Part shown: piece after piece, positions 7,414 to 56,722 of the stretch
Numbering within the stretch: position 1 is the stretch's first letter
Layout: each line of letters opens with the position of its first letter
NCBI GenBank assembly: GCA_963826225.1
Contig: CAWGWF010000001.1
Location: 988,391 to 1,052,390 of the forward strand
Source of the DNA: an uncultured Chloroflexia bacterium
Lineage (GTDB): Bacteria > Chloroflexota > Limnocylindria > Limnocylindrales > CSP1-4
Length of the DNA stretch: 64,000 nucleotides
Direction of reading: 5' to 3'
Position numbers and translations under genes: made by a program
Notes under the pieces: generated by a model
Databases searched by the model: none
What the model was told of the DNA's origin: nothing
The model's input: the letters and a program-made list of their open reading frames with translations, nothing else

Positions 7414-8247
7414 TCACATCGCCCCCGACCGCGCGCGCCGCTCCGCCTCCTCCTGCGCCTGCTCGTCGAGCAGCGCGGCCAGGTGCTCGGTGAGGTTGTG
7501 GGCGCGCAGGACTGCCCGGCCGCCGCGGAACTCGACCACCGTGATCCCGCACAACGCGAACGTGAACATCCAGAACCGATCCAGCGGCAGATCGAACAGG
7601 GTGAGCAGGACGATCTTGAACACGCCGTCGTGGCCGACGAGGATCGACCACGGCTGGCCCGCGGCCGGCCCGACGCCCACGTACCCGCCCACCTGGGGTC
7701 GGTCGAGGCTGCCCCGGGGGAAGTCCCGGCCGAGGCGCTCCAGGATCGCGGCCAGGGCCGGCCGGACCCGCGCCCGCACGTCGGCGATTGACTCCCCGCC
7801 GGGCGCCCACGCCTGGTGGGGATGCCGCCGCCAGGCCGCGAGCTCGGCGGGCCAGCGGCGCATGATCTCGTCGTGGGTCTCGCCCTCCCACGCGCCCTGG
7901 CCGATCTCCATGATCCCGGCCTCGGGGCGCACGGCGGATCCATGGTCCATGGCGGCCGCGACGGCCTCCGCCGTCTCCCGCGTCCGGGCGAGGGGGGAGT
8001 GCACGATCTCGAGCGGGAGCCCGATGGGCAGCGGGAGCGCCGGTGGCGCGTGGGGTTCGGCCAGCCGGGCGGCGGCCAGCGCGGCCTGCCGGCGTCCGAC
8101 CGCGGACAGGGGCGTCTCCGCCTGGCCCTGGAAGCGGTTCTCGCGGATCCACTCGGACTCGCCGTGACGCAGCAGGACCAGCGTCGCGTCCAGGCCCTCG
8201 GGGATCAGCGGTGCGACGGTCGGAGCTGCGGCCGCATCGCCCGTCAT
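7414..8247 (-). CDS. Histidine phosphatase family protein (phosphoglycerate-mutase-like)
   Basis: RHGESEWIRENRFQG catalytic motif near the N-terminus. The ATG at 8247 overlaps the serA stop (ATGA). It lies convergent to the transglutaminase gene. Confidence 0.8.
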   Translation of the reverse strand: MTGDAAAAPTVAPLIPEGLDATLVLLRHGESEWIRENRFQGQAETPLSAVGRRQAALAAARLAEPHAPPALPLPIGLPLEIVHSPLARTRETAEAVAAAMDHGSAVRPEAGIMEIGQGAWEGETHDEIMRRWPAELAAWRRHPHQAWAPGGESIADVRARVRPALAAILERLGRDFPRGSLDRPQVGGYVGVGPAAGQPWSILVGHDGVFKIVLLTLFDLPLDRFWMFTFALCGITVVEFRGGRAVLRAHNLTEHLAALLDEQAQEEAERRARSGAM

Positions 8248-11361: not shown

Positions 11362-12300
11362 ATGACCTCCTCCCGCCCGCATCGCCGCCGCCGCCGGCGG
11401 TACGCCGTCGTCGCGGTGCTGGCCGCCGCGGCGCTGCTCGGGATCCTCGCCCTGTGGTCCAACGTCCTGGGGGTGGGCGACCGTCTGGCCGGTGTCGCCC
11501 ATCGGATCGAGCTGATCGTGGATCCACCGCCGGACCGGCCGATCGAGGCGGAGGTGCGGGTCACGCCGCGGCCGGTCCCCACGCCGGCGGGAACCGTGAC
11601 CCCGGTGCCGTCGCCCACCGGCTCCGCTGATCCAGCGGCGCCTGCGCCCGCGCCGTCCGCGACGCCCAGACCCACGCCGGAGCGCGCGAGCGTGGACGTG
11701 ACGCTGCTGCGTCGTCCCGAGCGCTGGTTCATCAGCCAAACAGACAAGGATTGGTGCGCGGTGGCCGGCACGCAGATGGTGTTGGCGATCCATGGCCGTG
11801 CACCGCTGACCGCCGCCTTCCAGCGGGAGCTGGCGTCCCGGATCGATGAGTGGGAGAGCCGGCGCGACAGCCACAACGGCGGCTGGGGCCCGGCCGCGAT
11901 GGTCGGGGCCCTGGAGGCGCACGGAGTGCACGGCTACGAGGTCCGCGCCTACGACCGACGCTCGGACGCGCTACGTGATGCCGCGGTCGCGATCTCCACC
12001 TATCACGCGCCGGTGATCCTGCTCACCTGGAAAGGGGCGCACACCTGGGTGATGACCGGCTACCGTGCGGACGGCGATCCCACGGTGTTCGACGACGCCC
12101 GCGTCACCGGGACCTACATCCTCGACCCCTGGTACCCGCGCGTGTCCTCGATCTGGGGTCCCTCGGACCCGGCCGGGACGTTCCAGGACGGCGCCGAGAT
12201 GCGCCGCAACTACCTGCCCTGGAAACGACCCGAGGGCAAGTACCCGAGCCGCGACGGCCTGTTCATCGCGGTCATGCCGACGGTACCGCTGGACCGCTGA
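11362..12300 (+). CDS. Membrane-anchored secreted protein with a possible C39-like cysteine-peptidase fold
   Basis: Arg-rich N-terminus plus a TM anchor, then a Pro/Thr/Ala linker. The C-terminal domain has a candidate Cys (DKDWCAVAGTQMV) and His (GAHTWVMTGY). The 3' end overlaps murJ convergently by 29 bp. Confidence 0.55.
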   Translation: MTSSRPHRRRRRRYAVVAVLAAAALLGILALWSNVLGVGDRLAGVAHRIELIVDPPPDRPIEAEVRVTPRPVPTPAGTVTPVPSPTGSADPAAPAPAPSATPRPTPERASVDVTLLRRPERWFISQTDKDWCAVAGTQMVLAIHGRAPLTAAFQRELASRIDEWESRRDSHNGGWGPAAMVGALEAHGVHGYEVRAYDRRSDALRDAAVAISTYHAPVILLTWKGAHTWVMTGYRADGDPTVFDDARVTGTYILDPWYPRVSSIWGPSDPAGTFQDGAEMRRNYLPWKRPEGKYPSRDGLFIAVMPTVPLDR

Positions 12301-13624
12301 CCGGGCTCCGGAGCCGGCGCACGACGGCCCCGACCAGCAGGATCGTCTTGGCGGCGGAGCCCGCCGCGAAGCCCAGCGGGATCGCCAGCACCCCCGCAGG
12401 TTCGACGAGCGCGAGCGTGATCCCGACCGTCACGCCGAAGCCGGCCAGCGAGGCGAGCACGGCCAGGATCGTGTTGTGGGTCGAGTACACGGACCGCGCC
12501 AGCAGGTGGCCGAGCGCCTCGAACGGCACGGACAGCGCGAACGCGGCGAGGATTCCCGCCGTGAGCGCGACGTCGTCGGGGCCGAACTCCCCGCCGCCCA
12601 GCAGGACGTCGATCGCGATCGGCCCCACGATCACGAGGCCGACGGCGGCTGCCACGGTGACGACCGCGATCGTCGTCGCGTTGGTCCTCACGAGGCGCCG
12701 GAAGCCGGCCCGGTCCCCGGTCGCCCAGGCTGCCGAAAGCGCCGGGAACGCCGCCACCGAGATGGCGACGCCGATCAGCGACACGGGCACGCTCTGGAAG
12801 TTGCGCGCGAAGCTGACGGCCGTGACGCTGCCGGCCGCGAGCGTGGTGGCGACCGCGGTGAAGAACAGGAACGTCAGGGGCTCGATCGGATGGGCGAGCA
12901 TCTTGGGCAGCATCAGGCGCCCGAACTCGCGCAGCTCGGGCATCCGCAGGTCCAGGCGGGGCCGCAGCCGGATGGAGGTCCGCCGGATCCCCACCAGGCG
13001 GATGCCCAGGTGCAGCAGCGCGCCCGCGACCGCGCCGACGGCGGCGGCGCGAATGCCGATCGAGTCGTGGAGCAGCACGGTCCCCGCGACGATGCCGGCG
13101 TTGTACAGGATCGGCGCCAGCGCGTAGAACAGGAAGCGACGCTCGGCGACCAGGATCTCGCCCAGCGTGATCGAGGCCGCGAACAGGATCGGCGTGGCGA
13201 GCATCAGCTGGAACAGCTCGAGATACCGGGCCCGCTGGGCGGGATCGAAGCCCGGAGCCACGAGGTCCGCCGTCGCGGGCGCCACCGCGAGCAGCACCAG
13301 GCACGCCGCCGCCATCACGGCGACCGCGAGCGTGAGCACGGTCTGGGCGAACCGGGTGGCCGCGGCGGCATGGTCGCGCCGCAGGGTGCTGAAGATGGGC
13401 ACGAACGGGGCCGTCAGCCCGCTCGCGACCAGCACGTCGAGGGCGAGCTCCGGGAGCACGAACGCGGCGTTGTAGGCGTCCAGCTCCGCGCCCGCCCCGT
13501 ACGTCCGCGCGAACACGCGGTCGCGGACGAGGCCCATCGCGTAGCTGGCGAAGGTCAGCACCGACAGCAGCACCGCGCCCTGGGGCAGGAAGCGCGCGAC
13601 GAGCGACCGGCTGTAGCTGACCAC
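12272..13624 (-). CDS. murJ: Lipid II flippase MurJ/MviN
   Basis: A 14-TM MOP-superfamily profile (MGLVRDRVFARTYGAG ... LMLPKML). The GTG start at 13624 is preceded by GGAGGAG. Confidence 0.8.
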   Translation of the reverse strand: MVSYSRSLVARFLPQGAVLLSVLTFASYAMGLVRDRVFARTYGAGAELDAYNAAFVLPELALDVLVASGLTAPFVPIFSTLRRDHAAAATRFAQTVLTLAVAVMAAACLVLLAVAPATADLVAPGFDPAQRARYLELFQLMLATPILFAASITLGEILVAERRFLFYALAPILYNAGIVAGTVLLHDSIGIRAAAVGAVAGALLHLGIRLVGIRRTSIRLRPRLDLRMPELREFGRLMLPKMLAHPIEPLTFLFFTAVATTLAAGSVTAVSFARNFQSVPVSLIGVAISVAAFPALSAAWATGDRAGFRRLVRTNATTIAVVTVAAAVGLVIVGPIAIDVLLGGGEFGPDDVALTAGILAAFALSVPFEALGHLLARSVYSTHNTILAVLASLAGFGVTVGITLALVEPAGVLAIPLGFAAGSAAKTILLVGAVVRRLRSPVSGPAVPSA

Positions 13625-13641
13625 GTGCTCCTCCGGGGGCG

Positions 13642-13740
13642 GGTTCGGCGCGGCTGTGACGCGCGGTGCCCGCCGGGTGGGACGGTACCGGGTCGGGCGA
13701 CCGTTGGCGACGGAACCGGGCCCGCATCCTGCGCGGTCCC
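13642..13740 (+). repeat. Copy A of a roughly 100-nt direct-repeat element
   Basis: The core ttcggcgcggctgtgacgcgcggtgcccgccgggtgggacggtaccgg ... gggcccgcatcctgcgcgg aligns at about 85-90% identity with copy B at 17941-18047. It lies in the divergent intergenic region between murJ and the repeat-protein gene. Confidence 0.7.
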
Positions 13741-14032
13741 CGGTCCTGCCCTCGGGTCGTTGACCCGTCGCACCGGCAAACGTCACCGACGCACGGGGGC
13801 GACGTCACCGCAGGCACCCCCGGCCACCTCGACCGCACATCGCACCGTGACCAACGTCCGGGGGTCGCCCGGGACCCCGCCCGGTGCGCGCACCGCACGG
13901 GGCGGTGCACCCGGGAACATGGTCCCATCGTGCGGCTGGTACGAGCGCCCGGACAGCCCGACTCTGGCGGTGCGTACCGGGGGGACGCCACGTCGGCCGG
14001 AGCCGGCGCGCCACCACCGCCGGGGGTTGAAG

Positions 14033-15421
14033 ATGCACAGGGCCACGCTCCACAGGGGACCGATCGCGATCTCGCTCGCGCTGGCGGCTGCCATCTCGGT
14101 GGGCGTCTGGCCGACGGCCCCGTCGACCGCGATCGCGGCGCCGGGCGATCCGATCCTGGACGTCGAGCTCGACGTCGCGAGCGTCGTCGTGGGTGCCACG
14201 GTCCAGCTCACCGCGACGATCCACGGTGCAGACGGGAGCCTGCTGACGGGTCCGTCGACAAACACCCAGGTCCGCTTCGACTTCCTCCCGGGCAGCGCAA
14301 ACGCGCCCGTTGGTGGGGGCGGGGCGGACATGCGGTGCCACACCGGCCTGGTCGGCACCTGCACCGTGAGCTACGTGGCGGCCGCCGTCGGCACGGACGT
14401 CATCTGCGCGAGGACGACGAACGGCAGCGACACGTGCTTGGAGGATGTCGCCGCCCCCGAACGGGTCGATGCCTTCGACACCGTGCAGCGGACGGTCGTG
14501 GCCGCCGACCCGACGCCCGCACCCGACGCCGACCCGACGCCCGCACCCGACGCCGACCCGACGCCCGCACCCGACGCCGACCCGACGCCCGCGCCCGACG
14601 CCGACCCGACGCCCGCGCCCGACGCCGACCCGACGCCCGCGCCCGACGCCGACCCGACGCCCGCGCCCGACGCCGACCCGACGCCCGCGCCCGACGCCGA
14701 CCCGACGCCCGCGCCCGACGCCGACCCGACGCCCGCGCCCGACGCCGACCCGACGCCCGCGCCCGACGCCGACCCGACGCCCGCGCCCGACGCCGACCCG
14801 ACGCCCGCGCCCGACGCCGACCCGACGCCCGCGCCCGACGCCGACCCGACGCCCGCGCCCGACGCCGACCCGACGCCCGCGCCCGACGCCGACCCGACGC
14901 CCGCGCCCGACGCCGACCCGACGCCCGCGCCCGACGCCGACCCGACGCCCGCGCCCGACGCCGACCCGACGCCCGCGCCCGACGCCGACCCGACGCCCGC
15001 GCCCGACGCCGACCCGACGCCCGCGCCCGACGCCGACCCGACGCCCGCACCCGACGGCAGCCAGGACCCGAAGACGGCCCTGGTGCTCCCCGTTGGCGAG
15101 GGCGGGCCCTCCGGTCCGCGCAGCTCCGGCGATGGCCCGGCCGGGCCGCGCAGCGACAGCATGGTTGGTCCGGCACCGGGGCTGCAGCCCGATGGGCCCT
15201 CCTCCGCCCTGGGCATCGCGCTCGAGGGCGCGGCGCGGCTCTTCCGGCCGGAGGTTGCGGCGACCGTCGCCACGGTCTTCGGGTTCCCGATCCTCCTTGC
15301 GCTGCTCGTCCTGCTGTTCCTGCTCGTGCAGTCCCGGGTTGACCACCGGGACCCGAAGCTCCGGGCAGCGCCGCTGACGCTGGCCGACACGCTCGTCCCG
15401 TTCGCGGATGACGCACCGTGA
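14033..15421 (+). CDS. Secreted, membrane-anchored surface protein with 23 tandem DPTPAPDA octapeptide repeats
   Basis: Signal peptide (ISLALAAAISVGVWP...AIAAP) followed by an N-terminal domain of about 120 aa. Then 23 copies of DPTPAPDA, a Gly/Pro/Ser-rich segment, and a C-terminal TM helix (VFGFPILLALLVLLFLLV) with a short tail. The stop overlaps the start of the downstream GGDEF-EAL gene (ATGA). Confidence 0.75.
   Translation: MHRATLHRGPIAISLALAAAISVGVWPTAPSTAIAAPGDPILDVELDVASVVVGATVQLTATIHGADGSLLTGPSTNTQVRFDFLPGSANAPVGGGGADMRCHTGLVGTCTVSYVAAAVGTDVICARTTNGSDTCLEDVAAPERVDAFDTVQRTVVAADPTPAPDADPTPAPDADPTPAPDADPTPAPDADPTPAPDADPTPAPDADPTPAPDADPTPAPDADPTPAPDADPTPAPDADPTPAPDADPTPAPDADPTPAPDADPTPAPDADPTPAPDADPTPAPDADPTPAPDADPTPAPDADPTPAPDADPTPAPDADPTPAPDADPTPAPDADPTPAPDGSQDPKTALVLPVGEGGPSGPRSSGDGPAGPRSDSMVGPAPGLQPDGPSSALGIALEGAARLFRPEVAATVATVFGFPILLALLVLLFLLVQSRVDHRDPKLRAAPLTLADTLVPFADDAP
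14507..15058 (+). repeat. Tandem repeat, 23 copies of a 24-bp unit (gacccgacgcccgcgcccgacgcc), inside the CDS
   Basis: Direct inspection: the 19 internal copies are 100% identical. The first three copies and the last copy differ at a single synonymous position (gca instead of gcg). The last copy ends in ggc. Confidence 0.95.
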
Positions 15422-17916
15422 CGGCGGATCGGGCGAGGACCGACTACGCGATCCTCGGTGACCGGCTTCGCTACCTCCTGGGCCTGCGGTTCGCGCTTGC
15501 CGCCGTCACCATCGGCCTCGGGCTGGCGAGCCCCGCGACGCTCGGCGTTCCACTCCCGTCGCTGGTCACGACGGCGATCGCCTACCTGGGCCTGGCCCTC
15601 GCAATGGAATGGGTCGGCTGGCGATGGCCGAAGGCCACGTTCGCCACGATGACGGTCATGCTCCTGGTCGACGGGCTGTTCCTCGCCGCCACGATGTACG
15701 CGACGGGCGGAAGCGGGAGCCCGATGCGCTTCCTTGTCTACCTCCATCTCGTCGCCGTGACCCTGCTCGCCTCGTACCGGACGGGGCTCAAGATCGCACT
15801 CTGGCACTCGCTCCTGCTGTTCGTCGTGCTGTACGCACAGGCGGCGGCCCTGCTGCCGCCTGTGGAAGTGCTGCCAGGCCGGGCTATCGAGCTCCAGGGC
15901 ACGCCGGCCCTCAACGTCACGGCCTTCTGGCTGTTCGCCCTGGCGACGGCGGTGTTCTCGGCGCTCAACGAACGCGAGCTCCGCCAGCGACGCACCGACT
16001 TGGAGACGCTCGTCGCCGTTGGCTCGCGACTCGACGATGAGGGCGATCCGATCCACCAGGCGCAGATCGTCCTGGAGGCGCTTGCCGAGCGCTACGGCTT
16101 TGTCCGTGGCGTCGTCCTCGGCGCATCCGACGACCGGCTGCTCGCCCTGGGCTCGTTCGGCATGCCATTCACGCAGCATGGGCAGCCGCTGCCCGTGGAC
16201 CCGATCGTGGAGCGAGTGTGGGCGACGCGTGCCCCGCTGGCCGTGCGACGGCTGAACGCGGACCGCGACCCGGTCGTGGCAGGGCTGCTGCCCGAGGCGA
16301 GGAACGTCATCGTCGCGCCGATGTTCGCCGATGGCCGACCGGTGGGCGCCGTCATCCTCGAGCGGCCCGGCCGGGCAGTGGCCGGGATCGAGCGCCGGAT
16401 CATGAGCGTCGTCGCCCAGCTCGCGTCGATCGCGGCGCTGAACCTGCGCAACGCCGTGCTGCTCAAGCGGGTCCAGGACCTGGCCGAGCGAGACTCACTC
16501 ACGGGCGCCGCGAACCGGTATTCGTTCCAGGCCAGCCTCAAGCGCGTGCTCGACGATGGCCAGGAGCCGGACCGGATCTCGGCGGTCCTGTTCATCGATC
16601 TCGACGACTTCAAGATCGTCAACGACAGCCTCGGTCACGCGGCAGGCGACGAGCTCCTGGTGGCGGTGACGCGGCGCATCTCGTCGCTCGTCCGTGACGA
16701 CGACCTCGTGGCCCGGTTGGGGGGCGACGAGTTCGCCGTCCTGACGCACGACCAGCCAGACCTGCGGCGCTCGCGCGCGATGGCCGAGCGCCTGGTGCGC
16801 GACCTCCGCGCGCCGTACCTGGTGGCCGGTCAGCCGGTGTCCATCTCGGCCAGCATCGGCATCGCCGGCGCCCGGGACGCGATCGACGGTGCCGGCGACA
16901 TGGTCCGCAATGCAGACGTCGCGATGTACATGGCAAAGGCCGGCGGCAAGGCAGGCTTCGCCATCTTCGATCCAGGCATGCACCAGGCGATCCGGGAGCG
17001 GCACGAGCTGGCGCTGGAGCTCAAGCAGGCGGTCGACCTCCAGCAGTTGGTCCTTCGCTACCAGCCCATCATCGACCTCGCCACCAACCGCCTGGCAGGC
17101 GTCGAGGCGCTCGTTCGCTGGCGGCACCCCGAGCGCGGGCTCATCCCGCCCGGCCAGTTCATCGAGATCGCCGAGGAGGCTGGCTCGATCCTGCCGATCG
17201 GCCGCTGGGTGCTCCGCGAGGCCTGCCGCCAGGCGGCGGCATGGGGGGCGCAGGCCTCGACCCCGGCGGACATGTTCGTCGGCGTCAACGTATCGGCCCG
17301 TGAAGTCCAGGAGCAGGGGTTCATCGAGGGTGTCCGGGAGGCGCTGTCCGATCACGGCGTCGCCGCGTCGCGGCTGGTCATCGAGATCACCGAGACAGCC
17401 CTGCTGCGGGCGACGCCGACGACGGTCGAGACGCTCCAGGACCTGCGTGACCTGGGGGTGCGGGTGGTCATCGACGACTTCGGCACCGGGTACTTCTCGC
17501 TGAGCCACCTTCGCCAGTTCCCTGTCGACGCCCTGAAGATCGCGGGCGAGTTCACGCAGGAAGGCGAGTCGGAGACCGCGACCCGCTCGTCTGCGCTGGC
17601 GGCGGCGATCGTCGCGATGGCCCGATCGCTGGGCATCGACACCGTGGCTGAGGGTATCGAGACGCCGGCCCAGGCCGAGCGGATGCGATCGCTCCGCTGC
17701 ACCTACGGCCAGGGGTTCCACTTCGCCCATCCGATGCTGGCCGACGAGATTCCGGCTGCGGCACGGGGCGTCGAGGCGGCCCTGGCGGAGGCGGCCGCGG
17801 AGGCCGAGGTGATGGCCGAGATGGAGGCCGGGCGCGCCACGACCCCGCGTTCGCGTCGCCGCGCGTCGGCACGGCGGACTGGGCAGCCCGCGGCCACGCG
17901 AGCGGCACCCGCCTGA
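15418..17916 (+). CDS. Membrane-bound GAF-GGDEF-EAL protein (c-di-GMP cyclase/phosphodiesterase)
   Basis: Six predicted N-terminal TM helices and a GAF-like region. The GGDEF motif (RLGGDEFAV) and the EAL motif (EALVRW ... DDFGTGYSS-like) are both intact. Confidence 0.9.
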   Translation: MTADRARTDYAILGDRLRYLLGLRFALAAVTIGLGLASPATLGVPLPSLVTTAIAYLGLALAMEWVGWRWPKATFATMTVMLLVDGLFLAATMYATGGSGSPMRFLVYLHLVAVTLLASYRTGLKIALWHSLLLFVVLYAQAAALLPPVEVLPGRAIELQGTPALNVTAFWLFALATAVFSALNERELRQRRTDLETLVAVGSRLDDEGDPIHQAQIVLEALAERYGFVRGVVLGASDDRLLALGSFGMPFTQHGQPLPVDPIVERVWATRAPLAVRRLNADRDPVVAGLLPEARNVIVAPMFADGRPVGAVILERPGRAVAGIERRIMSVVAQLASIAALNLRNAVLLKRVQDLAERDSLTGAANRYSFQASLKRVLDDGQEPDRISAVLFIDLDDFKIVNDSLGHAAGDELLVAVTRRISSLVRDDDLVARLGGDEFAVLTHDQPDLRRSRAMAERLVRDLRAPYLVAGQPVSISASIGIAGARDAIDGAGDMVRNADVAMYMAKAGGKAGFAIFDPGMHQAIRERHELALELKQAVDLQQLVLRYQPIIDLATNRLAGVEALVRWRHPERGLIPPGQFIEIAEEAGSILPIGRWVLREACRQAAAWGAQASTPADMFVGVNVSAREVQEQGFIEGVREALSDHGVAASRLVIEITETALLRATPTTVETLQDLRDLGVRVVIDDFGTGYFSLSHLRQFPVDALKIAGEFTQEGESETATRSSALAAAIVAMARSLGIDTVAEGIETPAQAERMRSLRCTYGQGFHFAHPMLADEIPAAARGVEAALAEAAAEAEVMAEMEAGRATTPRSRRRASARRTGQPAATRAAPA

Positions 17917-17940
17917 CAGTCAGCAGTCGGCGTCTCACCG

Positions 17941-18047
17941 GTTTCGGCGCGCCTGTGACGCGCGGTGCCCCCGAGTGGGCCGGTACCGGCCCTGGTGGGC
18001 CGGGCGTGACGTGAAGGGGCCCCGCATCCGGCGGATGCGGGGCCCGG
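17941..18047 (+). repeat. Copy B of the roughly 100-nt direct-repeat element, ending in a GC-rich hairpin
   Basis: It contains ttcggcgcgcctgtgacgcgcggtgcccccgagtgggccggtaccgg and ends with the palindrome gggccccgcatccggcggatgcggggccc (18017-18045). It is in the same orientation as copy A and lies between the convergent genes. Confidence 0.7.
18017..18045. terminator. Bidirectional intrinsic terminator-like hairpin
   Basis: A near-perfect 13-14 bp GC-rich palindrome between the convergent stop codons at 17916 and 18069. There is no strong U-tract, which is usual for high-GC actinobacteria. Confidence 0.5.
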
Positions 18048-18068
18048 GTGGGTCGAGGTGGGGGATCG

Positions 18069-19598
18069 CTACTGGGTGACTGGGGCGTGATCGGGGTCGG
18101 GCGAAGGTTCGAGCGTGCCGGGCTTGAAGTTGCCCTTGCCCTTGACGCCGTTGACGTCGGAGGTGTTCTGCGCGTACTGGAGCGTCGCATAGGCGACGGC
18201 ATCGGAGTTCACGTCGAGCGCCGAGAGGTTGATGTTGTCGAAGGTGTCGCAGGCTAGGTGGTAGCAGGGGTCGTACTGGTCGCCCGCGGTACCGCCCCAC
18301 ATGGCGGCCTCGTCGGGCGTCTTGATCCCCTCGGCGCCGGTGAACAGCCCGCCGGCGGGGATGCCGACCGCGATGAACGGGCCGTAGTCGGACCGGCCGC
18401 TGAAGTCGGTGCCCTTGAAGGGGATCCCGCGCTGAGCGTAGAAGCGCTCGAAGGTCTTCTCGATCTCGGCCGAGCCCGCGGGTCCCGGACCGGCGCCGGC
18501 CCCGTCGCTGTCATCGCCGTCGTAGACGAAGAAGACATGGTTCGGCGAGCCGATCATGTCGAAGTTGAGGTAGAGCGTGATCCTGTCCACCTCCTCCGGG
18601 CTGAGATTGTTGACGTAGTGGGTCGATCCGACCAGGCCCGACTCCTCGGCACCCCAGAGGGCGAAGCGGACCTTGTTCCGTGGGTTGGCCTTGCTCATCT
18701 GCTGAGCCACCTCGAGGATCGCAGCCGAGCCCGAGCCGTTGTCCTGGATCCCCGGGCCGGCGTTGACGGAATCGAGATGGGCGCCGACCACGACCACGTT
18801 GTCCGGGTCGCCGCCGGGAGTCTCTGCGAGGACGTTGGAGGTGGTCGCGATGCCGCGGAAGGTCTCGGTCTTGAGGCGCATGATGAGGCCCGGGGTCGCC
18901 GCCAGCTGCTGGCCGACCGCCTGGGTCACCGACGTCACCGGGATGTTCAGCGTGAAGCCGTTGCCGAGTGTGCCGTTGAGCACTCCCGCGGCATTGTTGT
19001 AGATGACCACGCCCGAGGCGCCCGCGTTGTAGGCGTTGGTCGCCTTGATCGCGAAGGTGCAGGTGCCCCGGCTGATGAGCGCGATGTTCCCGGCCGGGAA
19101 GCCGGCGAAGTCGGCCGCGTTGCAGCCCCGGAAGTCGCTCACGGTGCTGACGGCTGCCGTGACGTCGCCGCTGCCCGAGTAGCTGAAGATGTTGTTCGTG
19201 ATCGGCCCGGCCGGCGGCGGCGAGACCTGCTCCAGGATCGACGGCGCGAGCGAGATGAACGTCTGGAACTGGAACTCCTGGACGGTCACGTCGTAGCCGG
19301 CGGCACGGAACACCGCTTCGGCATAGTCCGCAGACTGGTCGTAGCCGGGCGAGCCCGACACCCGAATGCCGTTGTTCGCGTCGGCGATCGTCTGGAGCGC
19401 GGCCTGGTGCTCGCGGACGCCCTCGAGCGTCACGCACTCGAGCAACTTCTTGAAGTTGTCGTTGGTCCGCGTGTCGCAGGCGGGGTCACCCGCCGACACG
19501 AGCGCCGCGGGGACGACGACGACCGCGGGCGCGGCCAGCACGAACGCCACGAGGATGCCGATCCTGCCGAGCCGTCGCCGGCCGGGATTGGTGCGCAT
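18069..19598 (-). CDS. Secreted M28-family aminopeptidase with an inserted PA domain (SGAP-like)
   Basis: Signal peptide, PA domain, M28 zinc ligands (HLDSV, DNGSG, EESG, FDM) and a C-terminal HLACDT motif. The ATG at 19598 is preceded by GGAGGAGGGG. Confidence 0.85.
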   Translation of the reverse strand: MRTNPGRRRLGRIGILVAFVLAAPAVVVVPAALVSAGDPACDTRTNDNFKKLLECVTLEGVREHQAALQTIADANNGIRVSGSPGYDQSADYAEAVFRAAGYDVTVQEFQFQTFISLAPSILEQVSPPPAGPITNNIFSYSGSGDVTAAVSTVSDFRGCNAADFAGFPAGNIALISRGTCTFAIKATNAYNAGASGVVIYNNAAGVLNGTLGNGFTLNIPVTSVTQAVGQQLAATPGLIMRLKTETFRGIATTSNVLAETPGGDPDNVVVVGAHLDSVNAGPGIQDNGSGSAAILEVAQQMSKANPRNKVRFALWGAEESGLVGSTHYVNNLSPEEVDRITLYLNFDMIGSPNHVFFVYDGDDSDGAGAGPGPAGSAEIEKTFERFYAQRGIPFKGTDFSGRSDYGPFIAVGIPAGGLFTGAEGIKTPDEAAMWGGTAGDQYDPCYHLACDTFDNINLSALDVNSDAVAYATLQYAQNTSDVNGVKGKGNFKPGTLEPSPDPDHAPVTQ

Positions 19599-19633
19599 CG
19601 AGACCCCTCCTCCATCACGCCCCGGCATCGTGG

Positions 19634-19667
19634 TCTCGCGCGGGGTGGGACGCGGCCCCGCGCGAGA
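19634..19667. terminator. Hairpin downstream of rarA (minus strand)
   Basis: The 12-bp stems tctcgcgcgggg and ccccgcgcgaga flank a 10-nt loop. It lies between the rarA stop and the aminopeptidase start. Confidence 0.4.
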
Positions 19668-19755
19668 TGTCGACTGGATGGGGCGAACAATGGCGAGCCT
19701 TGCGGGTGCCGTCCAGACCTTCGTCCAGGCGTTGCGCCCAGCGAACCGGCCGGGG

Positions 19756-21297
19756 TCAGGACCCGGCTTCTTCGGAGCCCCCATCGCCGGCGTCCCGGCG
19801 CTGCCCGTCGGCCATGGCGCGGCGGTTCGTTTCACGGAGCCGCGTGACCTTCGCCGCGGAGCCCATGCCGTCCACCTGGGGCCCGGGGACCGGGTTGCGC
19901 GGCGTCCGACCGCGGGCGCGGGCATCGTCCCGCGCCGCCTCCCGGGCCGCCATCCGTTCGCCGATCGTGCGCTCGTACCCCTGGTCCGAGGGCAGGTAGT
20001 AGCGGCGCCCGGCGAGCTCGTCCGGCAGGTACTGCTGGTCGACGTCGTGACCCTCGAACTCGTGGGGGTAGCGGTAGCCGACGCCGATCCCGTGGTGCTT
20101 CATCCGACGGTCCGCGGCGTTCCGCAGGTGGAGCGGGACCGGCAGCGAGCCGCGGTCCACGACGTCCGCGACGGCCGCCCAGTAGCCAGTGCCCGCCCGG
20201 TTGGACTTGGGCGCCGTTGCGATGTAGGCGGCGGCCTGGGCGAGGGCGTACTGGGCCTCCGGAAGCCCGACGTGGTCGAGCGCCTGGGCGGCCGAGATCG
20301 CCACCTGCAGGGCCCGTGGATCCGCGTTGCCCACATCCTCCGAGGCGCTGATGATCAGCCGGCGGGCGATGAACCGGGGGTCCTCGCCGGCCGCGACCAT
20401 CGCCGCCAGCCAGTACAGCGCGGCGTCCGGGTCGCTGCCTCGCAGGCTCTTGATGAACGCCGACACCGTGTCGTAGTGGCCGTCGCCGGCGCGGTCGTAG
20501 CCCAGCACCCGCTGCTGGGCAGCGGCCTCGACGTCGGCCAGGGTGGGGGAGACGGCGCCCCCTTCCGAACGGTGAGCCTCGTCCTCGGCCAGGGCGATCG
20601 AACCCTCGAGCACGTTGAGCGCCTGGCGCGCGTCGCCGCCCGCGAGGTCCACGAGGTGGTCGAAGGGTTCAGCTGCGAGCGTCACCCCGCCGCGCGGACC
20701 GAGTGGACCGGCCAGGCCGCGCTCTGCGTCCTCGAGGGCGCGGCGGATGATCGTGGCGACGTCCTCGTCGGCGAGGGGCTCCAGGCGCCAGACCCGCATC
20801 CGCGACAGGAGGGCGGCGTTGACCTCGAAGTAGGGGTTCTCGGTGGTGGCGCCGATCAGCGTGACGGTGCCGTCCTCCACGTGCGGAAGGAGCGCATCCT
20901 GCTGCGCCTTGTTGAAGCGATGGATCTCGTCGATGAACAGGACCGATCGACGACCCTCGAGGGTCAGCCGCTCCTGTGCCTCGGCGACGGTCGCCCGGAC
21001 CTCGGCCACGCCGGACATGACCGCGGAGATCGTGTGGAACCGGGCACCGACCGCGTCGGCAAGGAGCCGGGCGAGGGACGTCTTGCCGGTCCCGGGCGGA
21101 CCCCAGAGAAGCAGCGATGCGAGATGGCCCCGGCCCACCGAGCGGCGGAGCGGGCCCCGCTCGCCCACGAGGTGGTCCTGCCCGACGAACTCGTCCAGCG
21201 CGCGCGGCCGCATGCGGGCGGCGAGCGGCTGTCGTTCGGGGGGCGGGCGGAACAGGGCCTCGGGTCGGGCGCCGGGAACCGCGCGCCTGGTGGGCAT
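19756..21297 (-). CDS. rarA: Replication-associated recombination protein A (AAA+ ATPase)
   Basis: Walker [10 protein letters not shown], Walker B FIDEIHR and the MgsA/RarA C-terminal domain (PKSNRAGTGYW). Full length. Confidence 0.9.
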   Translation of the reverse strand: MPTRRAVPGARPEALFRPPPERQPLAARMRPRALDEFVGQDHLVGERGPLRRSVGRGHLASLLLWGPPGTGKTSLARLLADAVGARFHTISAVMSGVAEVRATVAEAQERLTLEGRRSVLFIDEIHRFNKAQQDALLPHVEDGTVTLIGATTENPYFEVNAALLSRMRVWRLEPLADEDVATIIRRALEDAERGLAGPLGPRGGVTLAAEPFDHLVDLAGGDARQALNVLEGSIALAEDEAHRSEGGAVSPTLADVEAAAQQRVLGYDRAGDGHYDTVSAFIKSLRGSDPDAALYWLAAMVAAGEDPRFIARRLIISASEDVGNADPRALQVAISAAQALDHVGLPEAQYALAQAAAYIATAPKSNRAGTGYWAAVADVVDRGSLPVPLHLRNAADRRMKHHGIGVGYRYPHEFEGHDVDQQYLPDELAGRRYYLPSDQGYERTIGERMAAREAARDDARARGRTPRNPVPGPQVDGMGSAAKVTRLRETNRRAMADGQRRDAGDGGSEEAGS

Positions 21298-30980: not shown

Positions 30981-31054
30981 CCCATGCGACCGGGTCCCGA
31001 TGGGACCATCGGGCGGCGGGTCCGGCGGCCGGGTCGCGTGGTAGAGTCGCGCCG

Positions 31055-45401: not shown

Positions 45402-45476
45402 GGCTGGGTAGCTCAGTGGTAGAGCAAGCGGCTCATAATCGCTAGGTCACAGGTTCGAATCCTGTCCCAGCTACCA
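45402..45476 (+). tRNA. tRNA with a CAU anticodon (elongator Met or Ile2 type), CCA encoded
   Basis: Manual fold. Acceptor stem GGCTGGG/CCCAGCT (G1-U72). D-arm GCTC-AGTGGTA-GAGC. Anticodon arm AGCGG-CTCATAA-TCGCT. T-arm ACAGG-TTCGAAT-CCTGT. Discriminator A plus CCA. Confidence 0.8.
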
Positions 45477-55360: not shown

Positions 55361-56722
55361 TTGCACGCGCCGTCACCGATCATTCGCGGCCTCAGCCGGG
55401 TCCTGGTGCTGCTGGGCCTGCTCCTGCTCGCGGCTCCTGTGCGAGGCGCGACGCCGGAGGTCGTCGTGCTCTCGGCGACCGGGGTCGTGGACAGCGTGCT
55501 CGCGGGCTACCTGGAGGAGGGGATCGCGCAGGCGGCCGAGGGCGGTGCGGCGGCGGTCGTCGTCGAGCTCAACACCCCGGGCGGGAGCCTCGATGCCACG
55601 CAGCGGATCACGAGCGCCCTGCTGGAGGCACCGCTCCCCGTCATCGTGTGGGTCGCGCCGGCAGGCGGGCGTGCCGCCAGCGCCGGGACGTTCATCACGC
55701 TTGCCGCCCATCTCGCATACATGGCACCCGGCACGAACATCGGGGCGGCCTCGCCCGTCGGCAGCGGTGGCGAGGACATCGAGGGGACGATGGGCGACAA
55801 GGTCCGGAACGACACCATCGCCAACATCACGGCGATCGCGGAGGCGCGGGGCCGCCCGGTGGACTGGGCCGTGCAGACGGTGACGGACGCACGATCCTCA
55901 CCTGCAAGCGAGGCCGTGGAGCTGGGTGTCGTGGACGGGATCGCAAGCACGATCGAAGAGGTGCTGGAGCAGGCGGACGGGCAGGAGGTGACCGTCGCCG
56001 GCCGGACCTATCCCCTGGAGCTCACGGGGGCCACCGTGACCGAGACATCGATCAACCCGCTCCAGGGCCTGCTGCATCTGCTGTCGGACCCCAACATCGC
56101 GTTCGTGCTGTTCACGATCGGCGTGTACGGGCTGATCTTCGAGCTCCAGAACCCGAACTTCGTGACCGGGATCCTGGGCGCGCTCGCGATCATCCTCGCC
56201 TTCATCGGGTTCGGCAGCCTGCCCCTCAACCTGGCCGGCCTCCTGCTCCTCGCGCTCGGCGTCGTCCTGTTCGTGCTGGAGACGCAAGTCGTCAGCCACG
56301 GGCTGCTCACGATCGGGGGGATCATCTGCTTCGTGCTGGGCGCATCCGCCCTGTACACCCAGCCCGGCGACCCGACCGGCCCGATCGTGGAGGTCGCCAC
56401 GCCGCTGATCGTCGTGTCCACGGCGACCACGGCCATCCTGATGGGCCTGCTCGCAGTCGCCGCCGTCCGCACCCGGCGGATGCGGGCCCCGGCGGGCACG
56501 GTCGGGGCGCCGGTCCCGATCGGCGCCAGCGGGATCGTCCAGTCGCCGCTTGCCCCGGTGGGCACGGTGTTCCTTGCCGGCGAACCCTGGAGCGCCCGGA
56601 CCGCGGACGGAGCGTCCCTGCCGCGGGAGGCGCACGTCCGCCTCGTCGCCTTCGACGGCCTGACGGCCGTCGTCGAGCCTTCACCAGAGCCACCGTCCTC
56701 GGCGCCCGCCGACGACACCTGA
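55361..56722 (+). CDS. NfeD-family membrane protein (long form, with a ClpP-class serine-protease-like domain)
   Basis: Signal/TM segment, a ClpP-like domain (VVELNTPGGSLDAT ... SAGTFI), four or five TM helices and a C-terminal OB-fold. It is followed by the stomatin gene. Confidence 0.8.
   Translation: MHAPSPIIRGLSRVLVLLGLLLLAAPVRGATPEVVVLSATGVVDSVLAGYLEEGIAQAAEGGAAAVVVELNTPGGSLDATQRITSALLEAPLPVIVWVAPAGGRAASAGTFITLAAHLAYMAPGTNIGAASPVGSGGEDIEGTMGDKVRNDTIANITAIAEARGRPVDWAVQTVTDARSSPASEAVELGVVDGIASTIEEVLEQADGQEVTVAGRTYPLELTGATVTETSINPLQGLLHLLSDPNIAFVLFTIGVYGLIFELQNPNFVTGILGALAIILAFIGFGSLPLNLAGLLLLALGVVLFVLETQVVSHGLLTIGGIICFVLGASALYTQPGDPTGPIVEVATPLIVVSTATTAILMGLLAVAAVRTRRMRAPAGTVGAPVPIGASGIVQSPLAPVGTVFLAGEPWSARTADGASLPREAHVRLVAFDGLTAVVEPSPEPPSSAPADDT

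Follow-up and report, generated by a model that had tools for sequence, protein, structure and literature searches.

That a segment between two direct repeats can be deleted ('pop-out'), whether through homologous recombination or through slippage during replication, is established bacterial genetics, and such deletion is also known for the remnants of tandem and segmental duplications. The locus described here resembles such cases. Same-orientation paralogous repeats of local origin, termed copies A and B, flank a segment of two genes next to murJ, there are natural alleles that lack exactly the bracketed segment and retain one repeat unit, and gene conversion between A and B is hinted at. 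The repeats are, however, only about 100 nt long and now share 79% identity, with a longest perfect stretch of 18 nt, so that recombination between them today would be inefficient, and the proposed event is reconstructed from sequence comparison. Direct repeats that bracket a module are also found at the attL/attR borders of islands and prophages, and as in those, close relatives (L001, L002, L021) have a site with a single repeat copy and no module, but no integrase or recombinase is detected by Pfam in or beside the module (the neighbours are MurJ, an M28 peptidase, and MgsA), the repeat is a gene's own probable promoter/leader region and neither a tRNA nor a short core site, and the cargo, which is probably ancestral at the locus, has no foreign signature in composition, phylogeny, or patchy location, with the same synteny in four relatives. 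Like in the case of transposon target-site duplications, host sequence is directly duplicated on both sides of a segment, but such duplications typically have 2-15 bp, whereas this one has about 100 nt, there is no transposase at the locus by Pfam, none of the inverted repeats listed forms a pair at the ends of the module, and the module appears vertically inherited. With REP, BIME, or MITE elements the repeat shares that it is a GC-rich intergenic sequence with hairpins in more than one copy, but it occurs in only two copies at one locus, and the relatives have one each at the orthologous position upstream of murJ. There is finally a likeness to duplication-degeneration-complementation, as the core of the repeat is kept at A and its hairpin at B while the other half decays in each; that concept mostly concerns genes with their enhancers, whereas the segment here is a 100-nt bacterial intergenic one with putative promoter/leader and terminator functions.

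The analysis corrects an earlier interpretation, which considered a possible new family of RNAs or a mobile cassette with its borders, and in place of which a local duplication of the murJ upstream region is now proposed. The locus represents ordinary genome evolution, neither a new RNA nor a mobile element; both processes involved are textbook, and there is nothing surprising in them to a specialist. It is a clean natural example, from uncultured high-GC Chloroflexota, of the complementary decay of a duplicated intergenic segment, and also an example of a presence/absence polymorphism of a c-di-GMP module that is bounded exactly by direct repeats.

The repeat pair and the genes at the murJ locus

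The window, which is the whole stretch of 64 kb that was analysed, contains two copies of the repeat in the same orientation (Table 1). The earlier note had described two copies of about 100 nt, and this is confirmed by BLASTN, which aligns 13640-13733 with 17939-18033 (79% identity over 96 columns, E about 6e-16), as well as by the exact count of the core 28-mer TTCGGCGCGSCTGTGACGCGCGGTGCCC, which has exactly two occurrences in the window (+ strand, 13644 and 17943) and no match in 100 shuffles. There are four differences across the 48-nt core (about 92% identity), and the similarity continues past the core as far as the hairpin's first arm, a part in which it is significant on its own (p about 0.003-0.008, 2000 shuffles). 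The longest exact match between today's copies has 18 nt, which makes them poor recombination substrates in their present form. No third copy is found in the window by profile search, and as a statement about the source genome this copy number covers 64 kb of a 2.69-Mb contig. The positions given before were right as well: the start-to-start spacing of 4299 nt agrees with copies about 4.3 kb apart that flank a two-gene module, copy A begins 18 nt from the murJ start codon, and copy B ends in a hairpin between convergent genes (stem arms 18017-18029 and 18033-18045). The murJ start itself is confirmed by a database protein that is 100% identical across all 450 aa.

Table 1. Features of the murJ locus (positions in the window)
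Feature	Position	Strand	Remarks
murJ (lipid II flippase)	12272..13624	-	starts with GTG at 13624; Shine-Dalgarno sequence GGAGGAG about 10 nt before it
Copy A	13640..13741		core 13644-13691, spacer, eroded hairpin remnant 13718-13741
GTACCGTCCCA motif (murJ sense strand)	13678..13688	-	putative -10/TSS region or murJ leader element
Second conserved block ACATGGTCCCATCGTGCG	13917..13934	+	murJ-X intergenic region, about 100 nt upstream of X
Gene X	14033..15421	+	signal peptide, N-terminal domain, about 27 PTPAPDAD repeats, C-terminal membrane anchor
Membrane-bound GAF-GGDEF-EAL protein	15418..17916	+	c-di-GMP turnover; stop at 17916
Copy B	17939..18045		core 17943-17989 with lineage-specific changes, spacer, intact 13-bp hairpin
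Motif in copy B	17976..17986	-	GTACCGGCCCA, otherwise invariant T changed to G
GC-rich hairpin	18017..18045		13-bp stem, 3-nt loop, between convergent genes
PA-domain M28 peptidase	18069..19925	-	stop at 18069

The module between the copies consists of gene X and the GGDEF-EAL gene, and the stop of X overlaps the start of the latter (GTGA). X has no Pfam match, and a homology search with its N-terminal domain yielded just two weak matches. Copy B stands beyond this module, beside the terminator hairpin of the M28 peptidase gene, and takes up the greater part of the 152 nt that separate the convergent GGDEF-EAL and peptidase genes. As the ORFs of the peptidase and MgsA overlap and the peptidase homologue of L001 is just 514 aa long, the true peptidase start is probably downstream of 19925.

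It is likely that the repeat goes back to an old local segmental duplication and that its copies serve as substrates for the recombinational loss of the module. About 100 nt immediately upstream of murJ, with the probable murJ promoter/leader core and an adjacent hairpin, would have been duplicated to give the paralogues A and B, of which A would have remained before murJ, while B would have come to lie across the resident module at the 3' end of the peptidase gene, and each copy would retain the half that is useful at its place, the core at A and the terminator hairpin at B. The duplication may have arisen, for example, by a tandem duplication of a core-X-DGC unit and a subsequent loss of the second gene pair. 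As the copies are direct repeats, recombination between A and B would remove the 4.3-kb module precisely and leave one unit behind, as it is seen in close relatives.

The resident module and alleles without it

X and the GGDEF-EAL gene are divergent from murJ also in L008, L010, L012, and L015, and the murJ-X intergenic region is collinear across these loci. The GGDEF-EAL identity follows the MurJ identity in L012, L010, and L008 (80/78, 78/77, and 75/74%), and the GC content of the module (0.70-0.72) is close to that of its flanks (0.72-0.74). Since the divergence tracks MurJ and the GC matches the flanks, the module is resident and not an inserted cassette. In a single-gene neighbour-joining tree of MurJ, computed without support values, the sister group of the window clade has four members, and all of them carry the module. 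The module is thus probably an ancestral neighbour of murJ, and the repeats mark a site of loss, not of entry.

Relatives without the module are found close to the window. L001, L002 (MurJ 96%), and L021 (MurJ 94%) show the order peptidase, hairpin, core, Shine-Dalgarno sequence, and murJ, and their single peptidase-murJ intergenic region of 148 nt is exactly one repeat unit, in which the peptidase side matches copy B of the window and the murJ side matches copy A. Among the three readings offered in the earlier note, the borders of an inserted cassette therefore came closest: the one-unit site without the module does exist in close relatives, but the polarity is probably the reverse. The three module-free alleles come from metagenome contigs of 3.7-6 kb, and they may represent assembly mis-joins across the repeat. 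L009, which has the module and the B junction, is 96.7% identical to the module-free L001 over the peptidase 3' end and the intergenic region, and the window is 91.5% identical to either of them over the same stretch. As the closest relative of L001 has the module, at least the L001 allele is a loss. Four-fold sites give the tree ((window, L001), L021), and with this topology the module must have been lost twice independently, or lost once and regained. Module-free murJ neighbourhoods occur also in L004 and L007.

These alleles could also be read the other way round. The close clade would then have been ancestrally module-free, and X and the GGDEF-EAL gene would have re-entered with a duplication of the about 100-nt intergenic region on both sides, either by a Campbell-type single crossover of a circle that carried one intergenic copy or by an insertion that made a very long target duplication. 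In both copies the hairpin adjoins the core, and it is only in the module-free arrangement that the terminator of the peptidase gene and the core of murJ are natural neighbours, in this order; this counts against a duplication upstream of murJ, as an insertion into a module-free site would explain it equally well. An insertion would also agree with the absence of the module in L021, the outgroup of the window and L001 by four-fold sites, and in the L004 and L007 neighbourhoods. It is at odds with the sister clade, whose four members all have the module at this very place and with a collinear murJ-X region, with the native GC and the divergence that tracks MurJ, with the pairing of L009 and L001, which calls for a loss in any case, and with the lack of a recombinase gene in the module. 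In addition, A has diverged in its hairpin half from the conserved hairpin by about 35%, in comparison to roughly 7-11% per lineage at four-fold sites within the close clade, and by this difference the duplication looks older than the clade. Such a re-entry is thus unlikely, and we infer that a deletion gave rise to the module-free alleles, and not an insertion to the full one.

It is highly improbable that the c-di-GMP module is a recombination-controlled on/off cassette at the population level, which would be lost and possibly re-gained via a circular intermediate, much as excision elements with short direct repeats at their ends, with copy B being kept for the switch or as an antisense promoter into the GGDEF-EAL gene. 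If this were true, the GTACCGTCCCA...GCGCGTCACAGGCGCGC core would be a previously undescribed murJ cis-regulatory element in this Chloroflexota lineage.

Tests for a structured RNA and for dispersed copies

The element had also been considered as a small structured RNA or a terminator family, for which we find no support. Rfam at gathering thresholds detects one tRNA only in the whole window, and at E up to 10 it gives three chance-level matches in 13400-18300, none of which overlaps A or B. The core folds no better than shuffled sequences (z = -0.60 for A and +0.06 for B on the + strand, -1.28 for A and -0.92 for B on the - strand). In favour of an RNA, the core has a short GC hairpin whose TCACAG loop is conserved, and copy B taken as a whole is more stably folded than its shuffles (z = -2.1 and -3.6 on the + and - strands, respectively), which is due to its terminal hairpin. 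RNAalifold with nine homologues results in -7.18 kcal/mol in murJ sense and -4.48 kcal/mol on the opposite strand, and the covariation terms are unfavourable on both (+0.74 and +0.35, respectively); most of the pairs do not vary, and several, such as a stem pair in L021, are disrupted with no compensatory change.

A ubiquitous high-copy REP-like element, which the earlier note had named as the finding that would speak against its view, was looked for and not found. There are no dispersed REP- or MITE-like copies in the 64 kb, where both copies lie at the murJ locus, and a search of the relatives' loci (248 kb) gave one match per locus. While a strict 25-mer had no match in the species genomes, a relaxed pattern matched nine times in 185,579 of them (596 Gb), once per genome, and all three matches in relatives are upstream of murJ. 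The other six, in Streptomyces (two), Bradyrhizobium, Rhizobacter, Amnibacterium, and Rubrobacteraceae, have no murJ nearby and were treated as chance. In metagenomes, one contig was matched, again with the element upstream of murJ, in a set of samples separate from those that hold L001, L002, and L021. With one element per genome in relatives, always before murJ, a small structured RNA or a dispersed terminator or REP-like family is extremely improbable and largely refuted.

Core, hairpin, and the decay of the two copies

All relatives retrieved have a single-copy element right in front of murJ, to which copy A is orthologous, and the core is directly 5' of murJ also in L010/L017, L012, L015, and L020. 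Within it, GTACCGT precedes the murJ start codon in 11 of 11 loci at a distance of 60-84 nt, mostly 64-65 nt, and it is kept regardless of whether the upstream neighbour of murJ is X, the M28 peptidase, a gene of the xanthine dehydrogenase family, or VanW. This strongly conserved motif at a roughly fixed distance 5' of the lipid II flippase gene is a candidate promoter/leader, and from its conservation the core is predicted to be the murJ promoter/leader. The TACCGT within the motif fits TANNNT. A sigma-70 consensus scan of 13400-18300 found nothing, a null result that is expected and uninformative in a genome of 73% GC. By inspection, an ECF-type site was rejected for want of a conserved AAC -35 at the right spacing, and a CRP-type site as there is just one TGTGA half-site; TACCGTCCCA and ANNGTCCCAY, considered as a general promoter motif, show no enrichment in the window.

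Copy B is a paralogue that is restricted to the close lineage of the window, and a search for it in the more distant module-bearing relatives L008 and L010 found none. Its hairpin is nearly identical in L001, L002, L009, and L021, where it follows right after the peptidase stop codon, and it is a putative bidirectional terminator. A 26-nt match to it at 56467-56492 could have been a second such hairpin, but it is apparently inside a coding sequence and was taken as chance.

The two halves of the repeat differ in what they preserve. In the hairpin and spacer half, copy B agrees with L001 and the B of L009, and about 25 of 74 columns are different in A; in the core it is A that agrees with L001 and the B of L009, and the B of the window has about 8 private changes in 75 columns, including the T>G in the invariant motif. 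As judged from these alignments, the decay is complementary, with the hairpin eroding in A and the core in B. The B of L009 has lost the CTGTGAC hairpin and retains the GTACCGTCCCA motif. An AC dinucleotide is common to A and B of the window, where L001, the B of L009, and L021 have GT, and from this a gene conversion between A and B is possible. The L001 intergenic region was also considered as a mosaic of A and B, which was rejected, as the comparison showed no crossover and the private changes are in A for the hairpin half and in B for the core. In a comparison aimed at whether the hairpin at A is ancestral, the post-core segment of the window proved too diverged to be aligned with the A-site intergenic regions of distant relatives.

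This pattern bears also on the suggestion of a shared regulator-binding region, which for copy B is not upheld: B is absent from L008 and L010, although they have the module, and it erodes differently in the two genomes that contain it. More generally, both copies might be functional in cis, as sites of one regulator or as two promoters, and couple expression at the two ends of the module, for example with an antisense transcript that copy B drives into the GGDEF-EAL gene. The strong conservation of the core upstream of murJ and the motif that persists in the B of L009 would fit such a role, but the T>G in the B of the window hits a motif that is invariant across all other aligned sequences, the CTGTGAC block lost from the B of L009 is otherwise conserved, and the private changes in the B core of the window are at or above the four-fold-site rate, which suggests no constraint. 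A regulatory role of both copies is thus very unlikely, and the preferred reading remains that of a local duplication with subsequent decay.

Outside the repeat there is the second conserved block in front of X, which belongs to the module's own upstream region. It is nearly invariant in the window, L012, L015, and L010, with one difference, in L010.

The repeat pair and its surroundings

That two ~100-nt copies lie in the same orientation, as the earlier note had claimed, was borne out by reading and aligning both regions: 13640-13733 matches 17939-18033 with 79% identity over 96 columns (BLASTN, E ~6e-16), and a 28-nt core pattern has two matches in the 64-kb window (13644 and 17943, both on the plus strand) and none in 100 of 100 shuffles. 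The copies differ at 4 positions in a 48-nt core, TTCGGCGCG(G/C)CTGTGACGCGCGGTGCCC...GGTACCGG, and behind it the similarity (GACG-GAACCGGGCCCGCATCCTGCG vs GACGTGAAGGGGCCCCGCATCCGGCG) is weaker, yet significant alone (p ~0.003-0.008), so that the repeat unit extends into the hairpin's first arm. Searching the window with a core-derived profile gave no third copy.

Features at and around the repeat pair
Feature	Position	Strand	Remarks
tRNA-Arg (GCG)	7599-7691	-	ARAGORN, 93 nt
MurJ	12272-13624	-	Pfam
Copy A	13640-13741		
ACATGGTCCCATCGTGCG	13917-13934	+	~100 nt upstream of X
Gene X	14033-15421	+	signal peptide, N-terminal domain, ~27 PTPAPDAD repeats, C-terminal anchor
24-nt tandem array in X	14335-15200		array core 14503-15056; 23 copies, 99% identity
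GAF-GGDEF-EAL membrane protein	15418-17916	+	Pfam
Copy B	17939-18045		
PA-domain M28 peptidase	18069-19925	-	Pfam
MgsA/RarA	19756-21297	-	Pfam
CGATGGTCCCATCG	30998-31011	-	apparently intergenic
tRNA-Met	45402-45473		Rfam, gathering threshold
Match to copy B hairpin	56467-56492		26 nt, 92% identical

The divergent intergenic region of murJ and X is 408 nt long, and copy A makes up its first 100 nt, beginning, as previously noted, 18 nt from the murJ start, a GTG that is confirmed by a 100% identical database protein over all 450 aa. The GGDEF-EAL and peptidase genes converge on a 152-nt gap that copy B largely fills, and the hairpin end of this copy, with a 13-bp stem, lies there as described. 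The similar stretch at 56467-56492 was read by eye as coding (a membrane anchor, then an Arg-rich stretch) and taken as chance.

The stop codon of X, which has no Pfam match, overlaps the GGDEF-EAL start. The array in X is flanked on both sides by decayed copies and encodes (PTPAPDAD)n between the N-terminal domain and the C-terminal membrane anchor; being near-perfect, it is probably length-variable. In the more distant relative L008, a gene has been called on the opposite strand across the region homologous to X, which may be the reason for the near absence of X homologues from databases.

Copy A as an upstream element of murJ

In an alignment of eleven sequences (nine murJ-upstream regions and two B copies), GTACCGT(C)CCA varies little or not at all, and with two further loci (L020, L021) added, all 11 orthologous murJ-upstream regions have GTACCGT at 60-84 nt before the start codon (64-65 in most). 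The identity of the upstream gene makes no difference to this: it may be X, the M28 peptidase, a xanthine-dehydrogenase-family gene (L004) or VanW (L007). In most of these regions the motif is followed by a second block, GCGCGTCACAGGCGCGCCG, and then by the SD. As the distance is kept whatever the upstream gene, and as block and SD follow, the element belongs to murJ. From the sequence we infer that TACCGT (TANNNT) is a candidate -10 region and the remainder a putative 5' leader of ~50 nt; within the window, the motif is not a general promoter signal. A scan for the sigma-70 consensus gave no match in 13400-18300, as is expected at 73% GC, and carries no weight for or against this promoter.

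A structured RNA family, which had been considered for the repeat, is disfavoured: Rfam has no match at copy A or B up to E = 10, the cores fold like shuffles (z -1.3 to +0.06), only the terminal hairpin of B folding exceptionally, and RNAalifold with nine homologues (-7.2 kcal/mol on one strand, -4.5 on the other) gave unfavourable covariation terms where compensatory changes were sought. A REP-like high-copy element was not found either, as the strict core pattern has no match in 185,579 species genomes and the relaxed pattern nine, one per genome, with two copies in the window. Three of the nine are in Chloroflexota MAGs (L012, L015 and L017, which is the L010 contig), all directly upstream of murJ, as is the one match of a metagenome scan; the remaining six, which lack a neighbouring murJ, were treated as chance. 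The repeat is neither a new RNA family, nor a REP element, nor a mobile cassette.

In the murJ-X intergenic region, ACATGGTCCCATCGTGCG is nearly invariant in four relatives, with one difference (L010). A related near-palindrome, CGATGGTCCCATCG, is found near 31000; the two could be a candidate operator for one regulator. L010 also has a perfect 12-bp hairpin (8207-8234, CTGCCCGGTGCC-GGAG-GGCACCGGGCAG) after the murJ core, at the relative position of the eroded hairpin of copy A and unrelated in sequence, and the region may long have had a hairpin between its two divergent promoters (murJ and X).

Decay of the copies, module-free alleles and history

Site by site, copy B in the hairpin/spacer half equals the module-free close relative L001 and the B copy of the module-bearing close relative L009, with A divergent, while in the core it is A that equals both; here about eight changes are private to window B, among them a T>G in GTACCGTCCCA, which does not vary otherwise. 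Each copy thus keeps just the locally useful part: A its murJ core, B its terminator, which lies between convergent genes. This complementary decay speaks against regulation through B and hence against the suggested shared regulator-binding site. The L009 B copy has retained GTACCGTCCCA and lost the CTGTGAC hairpin. An AC dinucleotide common to both window copies, GT in L001, L009 B and L021, weakly hints at A-B gene conversion.

The module of X and the GGDEF-EAL gene is resident and no foreign insert. Four more distant relatives (L008, L010, L012, L015) have murJ divergent from X and GGDEF-EAL, with proteins 74-80% identical, and the murJ-X regions of the window, L012, L015 and L010 are collinear, with the core and the ACATGGTCCCATCGTGCG block conserved. 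GGDEF-EAL and MurJ identities to the window run parallel (80/78, 78/77, 75/74%), module GC equals flank GC, and Pfam reveals no recombinase or transposase. In a single-gene NJ tree of MurJ, without support values, the window clade is sister to a clade with the module in 4/4 members, and the module-free L004 and L007 are more distant.

Three contigs from three JGI samples, L001 and L002 (MurJ 96%) and L021 (MurJ 94%), are module-free, with the order MgsA/peptidase, stop codon, hairpin, core, SD, murJ and a single 148-nt intergenic region. From the peptidase stop up to a point just short of the SD, across hairpin and core, this region is matched by copy B; copy A matches it from the core onwards, through the SD and into murJ, with divergence on the hairpin side, so that these contigs carry exactly one unit without the intervening 4.3 kb. 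An assembly mis-join across the repeat in these short metagenome contigs is unlikely.

L009 (GGDEF-EAL 97%) covers GGDEF-EAL, B copy, hairpin and peptidase 3' end. Over 211 nt of peptidase 3' end and intergenic region, it is 96.7% identical to L001, the window is 91.5% identical to either, and L021 ~78% to all three; as the closest pair is unlike in module state, at least L001 represents a loss between the repeats. Four-fold-site divergence (window-L001 0.148, L001-L021 0.194, window-L021 0.218) yields ((window, L001), L021), and any scenario needs either two losses or one loss plus a regain. Against the conserved B/L001/L009 consensus, the hairpin half of A has differences at ~25/74 columns, far above the roughly 7-11% four-fold divergence per lineage in the close clade, an excess that speaks for a duplication before the origin of this clade.

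The single-unit alleles are what speaks for the remnant cassette borders proposed before, and for entry of the module by Campbell-type integration; with a resident module that has no recombinase, loss is favoured over entry, and such an integration is improbable. Synteny in four relatives, the L009/L001 pair and the divergence of A favour an ancestral module, in which case module and repeats would already have been present in the ancestor of the close clade, and module-free alleles would derive from A x B recombination. With at most 18 nt of perfect identity, the present copies are poor recombination substrates; the losses probably date to when or where A and B were more alike. The duplication itself may have arisen by tandem duplication of core-X-GGDEF-EAL and later loss of the second gene pair, which fits the observed order, or by an ectopic repair event giving the same order. 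The feature is well explained by ordinary processes: the region upstream of murJ underwent a local segmental duplication, and its copies bracket a resident, deletion-prone c-di-GMP module.

The peptidase gene has a GC of 0.67-0.68 (0.72-0.74 around it), reaches only 86% identity to the L001 homologue (against 96% for MurJ), and has a 618-aa ORF vs 514 aa in L001; in L021 (1-483), an internal deletion has left only a remnant. The slot between MgsA and murJ/GGDEF-EAL holds another gene in each relative, such as TetR in L008 and VanW in L007. Elsewhere in the window, the tRNA-Arg call may be spurious or reflect an unusual tRNA, the Rfam model giving only the tRNA-Met.
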